IMG/VR virus record: IMGVR_UViG_2526164613_000026
Direction: 5' to 3' (one strand)
From: a virus
Lineage: Duplodnaviria > Heunggongvirae > Uroviricota > Caudoviricetes
Length of the DNA: 38,095 bases
Of the stretch, positions 22,221 through 26,861 are shown piece by piece; positions within the stretch are counted from its first letter, which is position 1; each line of letters opens with the position of its first letter. The notes under the pieces were generated by a model that saw nothing but the letters and a program-made list of their open reading frames with translations, was not told the DNA's origin and did not search any database. The position numbers and the translations under genes are program-made.

Positions 22221-22643
22221 TTATGCCGCCGAGCAGCTCCTACGCAAAGTCCTGATAGCCTGAGGCTTTGACTGAACCGACTGATCCATTTCGAGCACCA
22301 CATCCAGCATGGCTAAGCAACCGTCAATAAATCCCTCTGCCGCCTGAAGCCTCTTCAGAACGTGGGTGTGAGATACGCCGAGCTTCTCACCCATCGCCCG
22401 CACGGGCATGGCCTGGACGTAATGCCACTCAAGGAGCGTGCACAGATACGGATCTTTTTTCTTCAGGCAGCTCATAGCGGAGTTGATGATAAGACCGTCA
22501 TTGTCACTGCATTTCAGCCTTCCAGACTGCGTCGCGGGTAGCAGATTCTTAAACCCGGCTGCAACAGGAGGAAAGTAGACGCTACCACCTTCACTCGCTG
22601 CCCAGCCACCCCAGCGCTCTAAAACCTGTTGAATATTACGCAT
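22221..22643 (-). CDS. Late-gene antiterminator Q (QuuD-like family)
   Basis: 140 aa, ATG at 22643. N-terminus MRNIQQVLERWGGWAA and overall pattern resemble DLP12 QuuD as recalled. Sits immediately upstream of the late region. Confidence 0.75.
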   Translation of the reverse strand: MRNIQQVLERWGGWAASEGGSVYFPPVAAGFKNLLPATQSGRLKCSDNDGLIINSAMSCLKKKDPYLCTLLEWHYVQAMPVRAMGEKLGVSHTHVLKRLQAAEGFIDGCLAMLDVVLEMDQSVQSKPQAIRTLRRSCSAA

Positions 22644-22774: not shown

Positions 22775-22962
22775 GGAACCACCTGCCCCCACCTGGAACC
22801 ACCTTTTCCTAACCTTTCCCTCAATCGACTTATATATATATATGGGGTTTCTAGTAGAAAGGCGGTTCCAGTGGTTCCAGTGGTTCCGCCCCGCTTGCCA
22901 CAAGGTCTGCAAGGTGGAACCACCTTCTCTTTTAGGTGGTTCCGCGTGGTTCCAGCGGTTCC
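22775..22962. repeat. Iteron cluster, putative replication origin
   Basis: Nine GGAACC/GGTTCC hexamers counted by hand (consensus about AGGTGGTTCCA): three in one orientation at 22775, 22795, 22916 and six inverted at 22864, 22873, 22882, 22938, 22948, 22957. They flank a (TA)n tract TATATATATATAT at 22831..22843 and overlap the primase-helicase 3' end. Confidence 0.65.
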
Positions 22963-25118
22963 CAAACCTTGCATTTTTTCCCCCCAATTCGCCTTTGGGC
23001 ACGCTTATACCCGCAATTTTGCAAAACATTACTAATTCGCATTTCTTCGCGTTTTCCGATGCGGTCAGGATTTAGCCCAATCGCATCACGCAAAACATCA
23101 CTTGCGCGTAAAAATTCGCAATTTCGCGGAAGTTCATTAGTCATCAGGTCTGGCGTGTCGAGCCATTTCTCTACCGTTTCAAGCCAAGCATCCTTGATGG
23201 TGTACTGTTCATGGACACTCGCTGCCAGTTGTTCAGCCTCACGGAACTGGATACCCCCCAGACGCTGAAACACCTCACGAGCCTCAGCCCAAAGTAAAAG
23301 GAGATCTCTTTTTATCACTTTCACGTCGACTTTCGACACTTCCACGGGGAGCCAGCGACGGTTACCAGTCTTGTCCGCAAGGAATTCGTCCTCATTGGTG
23401 GTACCAACGAACACCAAGCGACGAGGAAACTGGGTGGCGAACTCCCGGTATTTCGGGATCCAGTTTTCGTGAGTACGCGTCACAAACGCTTTGATTGACT
23501 CCAGCTCTTTGGTATTAAGTCCGCGCAGTTCACCAATCTCTGCCACCAGCCGACCACGCATTTTTCGAGCGAGATCATCGTCTTTTTCGGCAAAAGAGAT
23601 TTCAGTAAAAAACGCAGGATCAGGGCTCAGTGCCTCCACTCCGGAAGACTTACCGCAGCCCTGCGGACCAACGAGGATCGGCACCATATCCGCTTTGATG
23701 CCTGGCTCCAGTACTCGCCCCGCCAACGCGGTCCACATGTACATAGACACCGCACGGGTATAAGGCGTGTCGGCTGTACCGAAGTGCGTATGGTAGAAAC
23801 ATTCGATGCGCGGCACGCCATCCCACTCCAGCCCGTTCAGCCAGGTGATCGCTGAATCGAATGGTTGTTCATCGGCTGCAAGTAACACCACATCGCGAAT
23901 AAGTTCACGACCAACAGGTTTAAATCCCCGCTTTTCCATCGTGATGCGCAGGCGCGCATAATCCGCATCGGTGAATGCCCGCCATTGTCCGGATCCTGCA
24001 GGGGCAAACATGATTTCGTCGCGGAACTGGTCAAAGCGAATATCGATGTCCACAAAATCAGGGCGTACTACTGCTTTGGCTGCGTTGCTGATGGTTGCCT
24101 CGATACGCCCCCATTTATCACGCTCGAAAGCAGGCAGCGGTAAAGGTTCCGCCACTTCGGTGCTGGTCAGATCTTCGAAATCGTCGTTGCGGATCCCGAT
24201 GGCATTAAGGAAATCTCCGTCATCACGATGCGCACAACTGGCATGCAGGCATTTAAAATGCCCCTGCTCAAAGCCCGCGGTTCCCGCAGGAAAATAAGCT
24301 GTGCTTGTTGGATCGCCCCCGCTACTGTGGCCGTCTTCAAACGGACAGCGGATATATCGTTCACCATTTGCGCCATCCAGCAGCGTCCAGCCATTGGCAT
24401 CAAGATATTCAGCTGTATCATCCGTCGCGCCGGGCGTGAATGCTGATCGGTCGCGCATCTTCGTGTTGCCCGCTTCGGTGGTTACCGACACAGGGAGTTG
24501 TTCAGCCAGGCGCTGCCACAGCGTTTCAAGCTGCTCACCAGTAATAGCCGGAGGTTCATCCGGCAAACCACCGTCCCATTCAATACGCGCGCCGCTGCTG
24601 TGCGTACCACAGGCAACGAACTGCTGCCCGTTCGCCAGCAACTCGATAATGCCCATATCCCCCGCCAGGCGATGGATACGCTTACGGAAATCACCATCAA
24701 CGGCCAGCAGATACAGACACTTATTACTGTTTGCTCGCCAGCGTCGCGGCGGCAACTCCCCCAGAAGTTGCACAAGCGTTTTGCGAATATCTGCCTGAAT
24801 GTCTTCATCTTCGCTATCGCAGTCCAGCGCCAGCCAGCCATGGCCTGTACGCACGCAGATGCCATAATCCGGTTCATTCGACCAGCGGGCAAAATCATGC
24901 TCAGTAGCAACATACCCGGTCCATTGAGCAATACCGGTGACCTGGCGGTCCCGGTTATAGCGACTTGGCGTCTTACCCAGCGCTTTCAGTTTACTATCAG
25001 GGGATATAGTCGCACCGGGGTTACATACAACTGGGAGAAGATGATCAGTTCTCCCCAATACCAGGTCGAAATGAAACCACTCATCAGGCGTAGCTCCCCA
25101 TGGTTTGCTATCGGACAT
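22932..25118 (-). CDS. Replicative primase-helicase (PrimPol-like N-terminus plus VirE-type P-loop C-terminus, P4 alpha-like architecture)
   Basis: 728 aa, ATG at 25118, 3 nt after Cro-like stop. Walker A ILVGPQGCGKSS and Walker B-like RLVFVGTTNE in the C-terminal half. Last codons are encoded by the iteron repeats. Confidence 0.8.
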   Translation of the reverse strand: MSDSKPWGATPDEWFHFDLVLGRTDHLLPVVCNPGATISPDSKLKALGKTPSRYNRDRQVTGIAQWTGYVATEHDFARWSNEPDYGICVRTGHGWLALDCDSEDEDIQADIRKTLVQLLGELPPRRWRANSNKCLYLLAVDGDFRKRIHRLAGDMGIIELLANGQQFVACGTHSSGARIEWDGGLPDEPPAITGEQLETLWQRLAEQLPVSVTTEAGNTKMRDRSAFTPGATDDTAEYLDANGWTLLDGANGERYIRCPFEDGHSSGGDPTSTAYFPAGTAGFEQGHFKCLHASCAHRDDGDFLNAIGIRNDDFEDLTSTEVAEPLPLPAFERDKWGRIEATISNAAKAVVRPDFVDIDIRFDQFRDEIMFAPAGSGQWRAFTDADYARLRITMEKRGFKPVGRELIRDVVLLAADEQPFDSAITWLNGLEWDGVPRIECFYHTHFGTADTPYTRAVSMYMWTALAGRVLEPGIKADMVPILVGPQGCGKSSGVEALSPDPAFFTEISFAEKDDDLARKMRGRLVAEIGELRGLNTKELESIKAFVTRTHENWIPKYREFATQFPRRLVFVGTTNEDEFLADKTGNRRWLPVEVSKVDVKVIKRDLLLLWAEAREVFQRLGGIQFREAEQLAASVHEQYTIKDAWLETVEKWLDTPDLMTNELPRNCEFLRASDVLRDAIGLNPDRIGKREEMRISNVLQNCGYKRAQRRIGGKKCKVWEPLEPRGTT

Positions 25119-25121
25119 GGG

Positions 25122-25334
25122 TTAAGCCTTTTTATCGTTTTGTGAGCCATACAACAGCCAATTAGGGTCGCAATCCAATGCTATAGACATTTCAAGAAGA
25201 TAACGTGGCCGAGCAATAACACCACTTTCAATTCTGTTTATTGCCTGCTGGCTCACTCCTGTGAGCTCAGCCAACGTAACTTGCGTCATTTTGAGTTCTT
25301 TACGTCGTTCTTTTACTCGGGTCGCTAAGGTCAT
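25122..25334 (-). CDS. Cro-like XRE-family HTH regulator
   Basis: ORF track starts at TTG 25352. ATG at 25334 has GAGGTG 6 nt upstream (70 aa). HTH pattern QVTLAELTGVSQQAINRIESG. Divergent from repressor gene. Confidence 0.7.
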   Translation of the reverse strand: MTLATRVKERRKELKMTQVTLAELTGVSQQAINRIESGVIARPRYLLEMSIALDCDPNWLLYGSQNDKKA

Positions 25335-25454
25335 TGCTTTCACCTCATACAATTTTAGTGGTATTTAGCAACAACAAACGGGGTTTGTCAAATACAACAA
25401 AAATTGTTTTTAATGTGGGTATACACATTAATACAACCCAGAAGGACTAATCCC
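25335..25454. promoter_or_regulatory. Divergent immunity-region promoter/operator interval
   Basis: Perfect -35 TTGACA on the minus strand (plus 25386..25391) directed toward cro. Overlapping inverted repeat ACAAAC-GGGG-TTTGT (about 25371..25386) plus further ACAA/TTGT half-sites. Confidence 0.5.
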
Positions 25455-26078
25455 ATGTCTCTCGCAGCCCGTTTTAAAGCACGTCGTTTGGAATTAGGAA
25501 TGACTCAAGTGGAAGTAGCGAATTCTGCAGGGGTTAGCCAACAATCCATAGAATCCATCGAAAGTGGACGAACCAAAAAGCCACGCAATCTTCTGGATCT
25601 GGCTAAGGCCTTGAAATGTAGCCCAGACTGGCTACTGAACGGTAAAAATATTATGCCTCTCGCGGAGATAAGTACCAGACGCATACCTATATTAAGTTAC
25701 ATTCAGGCAGGAGAGCTTACAGAAGCAAGAGACATAACAGATCTGACAGGGGAATTTGAATATATTTTGGCAGACTCTGACATTCCAGAAACATGCTTCG
25801 CATTACGTATTGATGGCGACAGCATGCAACCAGAGTTTAAAGAAGGAGACATTGTTATCATCGATCCTGATCTATGTCCTGCACCAGGGGAGTTTGTTGT
25901 CGCCAAAAACGACGGTCACGAAGCTACATTTAAAAAATACCGTCCATTAGGAATCGGCATCGACGACTTTGAATTAATCCCCCTAAATCCTGATTACCCT
26001 ATTTTTCGTAGTGCAGATATGAACTTACAGATCATAGGTGTAATGATCGAACACCGTATTTACCGCCGTAAACGTTAG
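25455..26078 (+). CDS. CI-like repressor (N-terminal HTH, C-terminal S24 LexA-like peptidase)
   Basis: ORF track starts at TTG 25404. ATG at 25455 has AAGGA upstream (207 aa). HTH QVEVANSAGVSQQSIESIESG. C-terminal catalytic-type pattern (DGDSM...K) as in lambda CI/LexA. Confidence 0.85.
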   Translation: MSLAARFKARRLELGMTQVEVANSAGVSQQSIESIESGRTKKPRNLLDLAKALKCSPDWLLNGKNIMPLAEISTRRIPILSYIQAGELTEARDITDLTGEFEYILADSDIPETCFALRIDGDSMQPEFKEGDIVIIDPDLCPAPGEFVVAKNDGHEATFKKYRPLGIGIDDFELIPLNPDYPIFRSADMNLQIIGVMIEHRIYRRKR

Positions 26079-26097
26079 TATTCCCACCGTAAATATC

Positions 26098-26117
26098 GGG
26101 AGGCGTAACAGCCTCCC
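26098..26117 (+). terminator. Hairpin after repressor gene (weak terminator)
   Basis: GGGAGGC-GTAACA-GCCTCCC, perfect 7-bp stem 20 nt after cI stop. Trailing U-tract is poor. Confidence 0.4.
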
Positions 26118-26191
26118 TTACCCCATTTGTAAAGTCTTACAAATTAAATTCACTTAAATATCAATAAAGTAGTATTCACATCCCACAAAAT

Positions 26192-26213
26192 ACCACGTTT
26201 GTGGTTTACACAA
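26192..26213. promoter_or_regulatory. Operator-like inverted repeat upstream of the rightward early operon (OL-like position)
   Basis: CCACAAA-N8-TTTGTGG, sharing the ACAAA/TTTGT half-site with the cI-cro intergenic palindrome. Followed by promoter-like TTTACA-17-TATCTT. Confidence 0.35.
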
Positions 26214-26400
26214 TACAACTCAAATTGTATCTTTAGCCACAAGTCGAACGGCGCGACTCTAAACCATGCGTCGGGACCGTGGCGGGACAGGATGTCGGCA
26301 ATACGGGTCAGTAAGTTCCCTTTGGGGTGCGGCGAAGCACTGTCTACTGATACAAGTCGAAGCCGCCGAACCACCAAAGTGAACTGAATGAGGAAACGGC

Positions 26401-26595
26401 GTGAAAACGTATAAACCGCTCAAAGGTGAATGCCCTGCTTGCCAAACACAGCTTCAGACACCAAAGCCAAAACGATACCAAATCAACGAATGTTATGAGC
26501 ACTGCCCTGGATGTGGTGCTTTCCTGCATACCATTGCAACGCACTGGCGTGTCCGCTTCAACCTTGTGGTACCACGTACGCACAATACCAACTGA
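26401..26595 (+). CDS. Small Zn-ribbon protein, 64 aa
   Basis: GTG start with GAGGAA 6 nt upstream. Two Cys pairs (CPAC ... CPGC). First gene after the OL-like promoter. Confidence 0.45.
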   Translation: MKTYKPLKGECPACQTQLQTPKPKRYQINECYEHCPGCGAFLHTIATHWRVRFNLVVPRTHNTN

Positions 26596-26626
26596 ATCAT
26601 CCATGTAATTGCTGTGTGTAGTCTTT

Positions 26627-26654
26627 GCCCGCCGCAAGTGACGGGCTTTTTTAT
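26627..26654 (+). terminator. Intrinsic terminator after the Zn-ribbon gene
   Basis: GC-rich stem (GCCCGCC ... CGGGC) followed by TTTTTTAT. Confidence 0.55.
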
Positions 26655-26711
26655 GTCTGAAAGCGCACTCGCAACAGCGCGCTCCCCGATATGAAAAAAG
26701 GAATACAACCG

Positions 26712-26861
26712 ATGAAACCTGAACACCTCTATCGACTGACGGGGCGCGATGTTCTCCGTTATCGCCGTAAAAACTTCGATTTGATGACCGGTCTGGCCGT
26801 TGCCACTGCGCTCGGTCTGATCATCACTTTCATTCTCCTTGTAGCGAGGACCATAGTATGA
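26712..26861 (+). CDS. Small membrane protein, 49 aa
   Basis: Hand-translated [55 protein letters not shown] 8 nt upstream. TGA overlaps ATG of next gene. Below ORF-track cutoff. Confidence 0.3.
   Translation: MKPEHLYRLTGRDVLRYRRKNFDLMTGLAVATALGLIITFILLVARTIV

Follow-up and report, generated by a model that had tools for sequence, protein, structure and literature searches.

Which sites allow a repressor to silence both early promoters of a prophage is the question raised by the immunity region of IMG/VR record IMGVR_UViG_2526164613_000026, a 38,095-nucleotide stretch of Escherichia coli prophage DNA that was analysed as a whole (the window). An earlier note on this DNA proposed that the cI repressor gene lies between two early promoters, and that its product controls both of them through two palindromes sharing an ACAAA/TTTGT half-site. 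We argue herein, at a probability of about 0.85, that the region is an ordinary immunity cassette of the phage 434 type, in which dimers of cI would bind 14-bp operators of the form ACAA-N6-TTGT at the right and left operator regions (OR and OL), silencing the early promoters PR and PL. One repressor very probably controls both promoters by way of five such operators, and not by way of the two palindromes. This reading is built on the homology of the regulatory proteins to those of 434, the co-linearity of operators and promoters with 434 and with phage HK022, the conservation of the operators and the boundaries of the cassette; inferred from it are the binding itself, the order in which the sites are occupied, the exact PR -10 and the repressor-maintenance promoter (PRM).

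The two regulatory genes are divergently transcribed, as judged from Pfam domains, gene order and strands. The cI gene encodes 207 amino acids on the plus strand (25455..26078, stop TAG at 26076-26078; Pfam Peptidase_S24, E 2.8e-21, and HTH_3, E 6.7e-14), while the cro-like gene encodes 70 amino acids on the minus strand (25122..25334; HTH_3, E 1.7e-14), and the same 70-amino-acid cro reading frame is called by RefSeq in E. coli B379. The top PDB match of the cI N-terminus is the 434 repressor (1per/2or1; E 2.4e-16) and that of Cro is 434 Cro (3cro; E 1.9e-19), both without gaps. The RefSeq labels at matching loci read "LexA family protein" and "helix-turn-helix domain-containing protein". The DNA-reading pair Gln28-Gln29 is kept in both cI and Cro, and is invariant across all 10 aligned proteins. 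The recognition helices read SQQSIES (cI) and SQQAINR (Cro) here, and TQQSIEQ and KQQSIQL in 434. The self-cleavage motifs of cI, namely Ala-Gly (in QAG), the Ser of GDSM and the Lys of ATFKK, align with 434 cI as well. Judged by its sequence, cI is a 434-like helix-turn-helix (HTH) joined to a LexA/S24 self-cleaving domain, for which cleavage is predicted. The 434 repressor and Cro bind 14-bp dyads with conserved outer four bases (ACAA...TTGT), and three such sites are found in each of OR and OL (PMC1636474). Because cI and Cro are 434-like and the 434 dyad has this form, the sites predicted here are ACAA-N6-TTGT, not dyads with the spacings of the earlier note.

Such sites occur between cI and cro in the frame of 434. 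OR1 (ACAATTTTAGTGGT, 25349..25362), with half-sites ACAA and ACCA (one mismatch), aligns with 434 OR1 in a gap-free alignment and sits just downstream of the PR -10, across the expected start site. A spacer of 8 bp (atttagca) separates it from OR2 (ACAACAAACGGGGT, 25371..25384), a degenerate site in the PR spacer, with half-sites ACAA and ACCC (two mismatches), the frame of which is set by 434 and about 18 relatives. A spacer of 9 bp (ttgtcaaat, TTGTCAAAT) leads on to OR3 (ACAACAAAAATTGT, 25394..25407), an exact ACAA-N6-TTGT. Read directly, the OR region of 434 is ACAAACTTTCTTGT - attttcat - ACAATGTATCTTGT - ttgtcaaat - ACAGTTTTTCTTGT, so that the window and 434 share both the 14-8-14-9-14 frame and the nonamer TTGTCAAAT; across 434, B379 and most relatives, the nonamer that separates OR2 from OR3 hardly varies. 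It contains a shared -35 element, TTGTCAA (25385..25391), which is read as TTGACA on the minus strand for PR (25391-25386; TGTCAA on the plus strand) and as TTGTCA on the plus strand for the putative PRM (25385-25390). The perfect -35 toward cro described in the earlier note is indeed there, and is the conserved -35 of PR. Positional homology places the PR -10 on the minus strand at 25363..25368, either as CTAAAT at 17-bp spacing or as TAAATA at 18 bp; CTAAAT makes up the final 6 bp of the OR1-OR2 spacer, and the corresponding hexamer of 434 is GAAAAT. On the plus strand, the putative PRM -10 is TTTAAT (25409..25414), 18 bp after TTGTCA, and relatives carry NANNAT or TTTAAT-like hexamers right after OR3; OR3 itself lies in the spacer between these two PRM hexamers. 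The PR and PRM of 434 are reportedly used in a mutually exclusive manner.

Two further operators were located past cI. OL2 (ACCACGTTTGTGGT, 26192..26205), which has the form ACCA-N6-TGGT with both half-sites ACCA, occupies the position of 434 OL2 and abuts the PL -35, overlapping its first base. After a 9-bp spacer (TTACANNAT) comes OL1 (ACAACTCAAATTGT, 26215..26228), an exact ACAA-N6-TTGT in the position of 434 OL1, which fills the PL spacer, overlaps the first base of the PL -10 and had been missed by the earlier note. The arrangement OL2-TTACACAAT-OL1 (ttacacaat) found here corresponds to OL2-TTACAACAT-OL1 (ttacaacat) in 434, and TTTACA is the -35 in both. The promoter itself, TTTACA-17-TATCTT (26205..26233, plus strand), had been recognized as pointing into the rightward early operon, and this holds: it was the only sigma-70-like site called by a consensus scan of 25000-26800, it aligns with HK022 PL and 434 PL, and a putL homologue follows it. 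The only two exact ACAA-N6-TTGT sites in the 38-kb window (25394 and 26215) are both inside promoter spacers. The proposal that a single repressor acts at OR- and OL-like regions with cI between them, which is the standard lambdoid layout, has good support.

Comparison with relatives bears on which bases matter. Near-identical E. coli copies (98-100% identity) are uninformative for conservation, and the comparison used B379 and more distant contig relatives. The cI of B379 is 92% identical at the protein level and has an identical recognition helix, while the region is only 77.5% identical in DNA; silent sites have therefore diverged, which makes B379 a test case for the operators. OR1, OR3, OL1, TTGTCAAAT and the spacers are all identical in B379, and OL2 differs at one central base. 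The B379 OR2 (ACAGCTAATCATGT), on the other hand, differs at 6 of the 14 positions, with the outer AC..GT kept. A five-way OR alignment of the window, B379, Sodalis, Acerihabitans and 434 contains no gaps; one central base of OR3 differs in Sodalis and Acerihabitans, and AC at positions 1-2 and GT at 13-14 are invariant at every site in the five-way OR and OL alignments. About 18 further relatives share the frame, with ACAG-N6-CTGT or ACAA-type sites. The ACAG-N6-CTGT sites, accompanied by a different recognition helix, are carried by about 12 further prophages and by the phages CobraSix, vB_YenM_29.18 and ST16-OXA48phi5.2. The operators thus co-vary with the repressor, other repressors or helices on relatives going with different dyads. 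For example, two prophages with the same backbone and another repressor/Cro pair (L005 and L006) carry the dyad ATATCT-N6-AGATAT, and regain 100% identity with the window at 26237, immediately past the PL -10. Since homology returns only there, both operator regions move with the repressor gene, as expected if one repressor serves both.

A separate observation concerns OR2 (25371-25384 in the window; positions 2572-2585 of L004 in B379). It is the sole diverged element of the approximately 75-bp operator region, with 6 of its 14 positions changed and one difference in the other 60 bp or so. This could reflect a local diversifying change or a micro-recombination.

Several results weigh against a 434-type switch at this locus. 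Neither PR nor PRM was called by the consensus scan, and their hexamers are assigned by homology only; CTAAAT is a weak match to a -10, and the PRM hexamers are weak as well. The right half-site of OR2 (ACCC) is poor, and OR2 alone among the elements differs from one close relative to another; OL2 has ACCA in place of ACAA in both halves; and no OL3 candidate was found in 26120-26190. Window-wide enrichment of ACAA-N6-TTGT was absent, with 2 exact sites against 0.89 expected and, with one mismatch allowed, 14 against 17.6; the case for the 14-mers therefore rests on position and on comparison and conservation. Finally, the sites with the exact consensus are OR3 and OL1, not OR1, for which reason the order of occupancy known from 434 or lambda cannot simply be assumed.

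A rival reading is a reduced switch, in which only OR1, OR3 and OL1 are real operators, while OR2 and OL2 are left over from the 434 layout and have decayed or lost their function. The two mismatches in one OR2 half-site, the 6 of 14 positions changed in B379, the departure of both OL2 half-sites from ACAA and the chance frequency of one-mismatch 14-mers in the window all fit that idea. Nonetheless, all five aligned cassettes have the same AC..GT ends in OR2 and OL2, a single central base is all that sets the OL2 of B379 apart, and the ACCA half-site of OL2 recurs in OR1. Moreover, the weak middle sites of 434 and lambda are filled cooperatively. We consider the reduced switch unlikely. That the inverted repeats act in RNA as hairpins or a terminator, and not as protein sites, is scarcely credible. 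A terminator scan does list 26205-26192 on the minus strand, where ACCAC-AAAC-GTGGT forms a 5-bp stem followed by a T-rich tail; however, no convergent gene ends there, 2 terminator-like hits are close to the 1.7 expected, and the ACCAC stem is no more than the dyad symmetry of OL2, a site that precedes the PL start and hence is not part of the PL transcript.

The original proposal, by which the repressor recognises one palindrome at each promoter (25374-25388 and 26183-26204), has rarity on its side. Both palindromes exist, and a search for ACAAA-N(4-8)-TTTGT found 2 sites in 38 kb, located only at these palindromes, against 0.25 expected; a count of 2 was reached in 1 of 100 shuffled sequences, and the motif is therefore not common in the window. 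ACAA-N10-TTGT is likewise found only twice, at 25371 and 26185, and was tried as a second class of site, but was rejected as unconserved in B379. Against these counts, the palindrome spacings differ from each other and from the N6 of 434-type dimers, and the arms are explained by overlap with a conserved 14-mer or with the -35 element. The plus-strand string ACAAACGGGGTTTGT, described as ACAAAC-GGGG-TTTGT, is present at 25374-25388 and is assembled from the interior of OR2 and the first four bases, TTGT, of the -35 element; its ACAAAC left arm is missing from B379, Sodalis, Acerihabitans and 434 alike, and it is judged to be an unconserved by-product. The second palindrome, CCACAAA-N8-TTTGTGG, is also real (26183-26204, 105 bp past the cI stop), with a right arm that is the right half of OL2 and a left arm that is flanking DNA; CCACAAA reads CCCATAA in B379 (3 of 7 bases differ) while the OL2 half-sites stay. 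Both palindromes are broken in B379 despite a repressor that is 92% identical and has the same recognition helix, and neither exists in the Sodalis, Acerihabitans or 434 cassettes. Repressor recognition of the palindromes is thus very unlikely. The shared half-site ACAA was correctly seen; the frame was wrong, because the inner ACAA/TTGT spacings are 7 and 10 bp, whereas the 434-type spacing is N6. The excess of ACAA/TTGT words that drew attention arises because genuine, overlapping 14-bp operators lie there in a different frame.

How a 434-type switch would operate here can be read from these positions. In the lysogen, cI dimers on OR1 and OR2 would lie over the PR start site and spacer, and so keep cro, the VapE primase, Q and the late genes off. 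Bound at OL1 (within the PL spacer and -10) and at OL2 (abutting the -35), cI would turn off the put-antiterminated operon that encodes the DUF2800 nuclease, the Enc34-type single-stranded DNA-binding protein (SSB), DNA polymerase A and the SNF2 helicase. OR3, in the spacer of a weak PRM, the -35 of which (TTGTCA) overlaps that of PR on the opposite strand, would allow cI to regulate its own synthesis and Cro to turn cI off. Both promoters would be released once cI, stimulated by RecA, cleaves itself at Ala-Gly. Such SOS-triggered self-cleavage is the probable route of induction, since the Ala-Gly, the Ser of GDSM and the Lys of FKK align with 434 cI.

By every sequence-level criterion examined, the locus is a member of the 434-type immunity family. 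It shares with 434 the divergent cI and cro, HTH domains closest to the solved 434 proteins, Gln28-Gln29, the S24 self-cleavage domain, 14-bp ACAA-type operators, the 14-8-14-9-14 frame, TTGTCAAAT, and OL2-9-OL1 with TTTACA as the -35. It differs in that cI is 38% identical overall, recognition-helix residue 33 is Ser here and Gln in 434, and several half-sites are ACCA or ACCC. Furthermore, the perfect consensus is OR3 and not OR1 (the OR3 of 434 carries a deviant ACAG), no OL3 was found, and neither a rex/hex-like gene after cI, an N gene nor cII is present. The OL1-OL3 protein_bind features of the 434 record OL657227.1 (L042, 1941-2022) were left unused, as they lie inside the cI coding sequence, and the sequence was read directly instead; the ACAA-N6-TTGT sites were found elsewhere, beyond the next gene, and these annotations are probably misplaced.

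Other lambdoid cassettes resemble the window in part. The closest cI proteins among phage records (58-60% identity) belong to ACAG-N6-CTGT cassettes, which have the operator frame, TTGTCAA(A/T)T and two PL operators in common with the window; they are those of CobraSix (an Enterobacter phage), vB_YenM_29.18 (Yersinia), ST16-OXA48phi5.2 (Klebsiella) and prophages of Pantoea, Erwinia and Xenorhabdus. These cassettes differ in the fourth operator base (G, against A here), in the recognition helix (RQQSWQS or TQQSWQS, against SQQSIES), and in that they replicate with a standard, lambda-like cII-O-P module and for the most part have boxA/nut where the window has put. HK022, in which antitermination requires RNA only, is alike in its PL-putL segment, with a PL -35 of TTTACA, a -10 in the same columns and a 72-nt putL-like stretch containing AACCAT, and is unlike the window in immunity specificity and in that blastn found no second, putR-like copy here. 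The analysis leaves the current understanding unchallenged. What it gives is a testable operator and promoter map for this prophage family, in which the operator architecture of 434 and the put device of HK022 are combined on a replication backbone that is not lambda-like (VapE under PR; PolA, SSB and nuclease under PL). It is conceivable, though doubtful, that the cassette is wired unlike 434, with its best sites at OR3 and OL1, a weak and hypervariable OR2, no cII-like gene, a put RNA replacing N, and its own PolA/VapE primase/DUF2800 replication. If the occupancy order were inverted, or if OR2 served to tune the switch and were under diversifying selection, nature would here have varied the logic of the textbook switch.

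The put-like leader follows PL directly. A predicted putL-like antiterminator RNA (about 26242..26313, plus strand) was identified by blastn against annotated phages, with 82.4% identity over 72 nt to putL of HK022, HK75 and O276, and the matched RNA is annotated as putL in HK75, O276 and HK639. When the window is aligned with phage O276, its TTTACA and TATCTT fall in the columns of the annotated HK022 PL -35 (TTTACA) and -10 (CATCAT). In HK022, putL comes shortly after PL and has a NANNAT that resembles a -10 at +23 to +28 (PMC9378689). A conserved AACCAT at 26262-26267 occupies +23 to +28 if +1 is 26240, and this position puts the PL +1 near 26240, 7 nt past the -10. An RNA of the HK022 put type is expected to form two stem-loops over about 70 nt, and to let polymerase pass terminators without further factors in a manner that depends on the beta' zinc-binding domain. 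The minimum-free-energy fold of the leader has two stems, with a z-score of 0.32 and an energy no better than that of shuffled sequence, and no Rfam family matched the leader. In relatives of other immunity types, a promoter at this position is followed by a put-like leader in some cases and by a boxA (GCTCTTTAACAA) in others.

The window is 100% identical to E. coli O55:H7 DEC5B, and at least 80% of the immunity region is carried by about 44 of 5,426 complete E. coli genomes, O55:H7 strains among them. The leftward PR operon runs from cro to the VapE-type primase (25118-22932, minus strand), antiterminator Q (22643-22221, minus strand), lysis functions including a holin, terminase and structural genes. 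The primase starts 4 nt beyond the cro stop, and the cro-primase junction (25118-25122) holds no cII-like gene. Past PL, the rightward operon contains small open reading frames, the DUF2800 nuclease, the Enc34-type SSB, a family A DNA polymerase and the SNF2 helicase; no N-like gene follows PL, the first reading frame being a 64-amino-acid Zn-ribbon protein (26401-26595). No tRNA genes were found in the window.

Between cI and OL2, a hairpin without a U-run, GGGAGGC-GTAACA-GCCTCCC (26098..26117, plus strand), was read from the sequence past the cI stop and is probably the end of the cI transcript; the terminator scan did not call it. B379 has a hairpin at the same place, GGAGGGC-TCCGCT-GCCCTCC, in which the stem is kept and the sequence changed, and most relatives have a canonical terminator with a T-run in this position instead. 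Further on lie a perfect palindrome, TTGTAA-AGTC-TTACAA (26127-26142), and an element like the binding site of integration host factor, TATCAATAAAGTA (26159-26171), with one mismatch to WATCAANNNNTTR. This block (26127-26171) is almost identical in B379, though the adjoining hairpin region has diverged. A related ACAAA(T/A)TAAAT motif occurs upstream of PL in many relatives, whatever their immunity type, and is for that reason not a repressor site.

Two other elements of the window deserve mention. An RprA-like element at 26547-26656 (plus strand) matched Rfam RF00034 with 48.2 bits, below the gathering threshold of 70 (E 2e-5 on 241 nt). Its 3' half, AAUUGCUGUGUGUAGUCUUUGCCCG...CGGGCUUUUUU, agrees with the RprA consensus at nearly every base, also in the terminator hairpin, while its 5' half has diverged and runs across the end of the Zn-ribbon reading frame; the stretch 26599-26700, which overlaps the element, is 99% identical in phages vB_EcoM-606R2, 689R2 and 611R5. 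The element may be a prophage-borne mimic of the host small RNA. Lastly, the segment 22650-22960, read on the minus strand, covers the 3' end of the primase gene, which stops at 22932, and the interval that separates it from the Q start at 22643. Around a (TA)6 run near 22840, this segment carries GGAACCAC / GTGGTTCC at least seven times, in both orientations. With a layout that resembles iterons beside an AT-rich unwinding element, it is a candidate replication origin.

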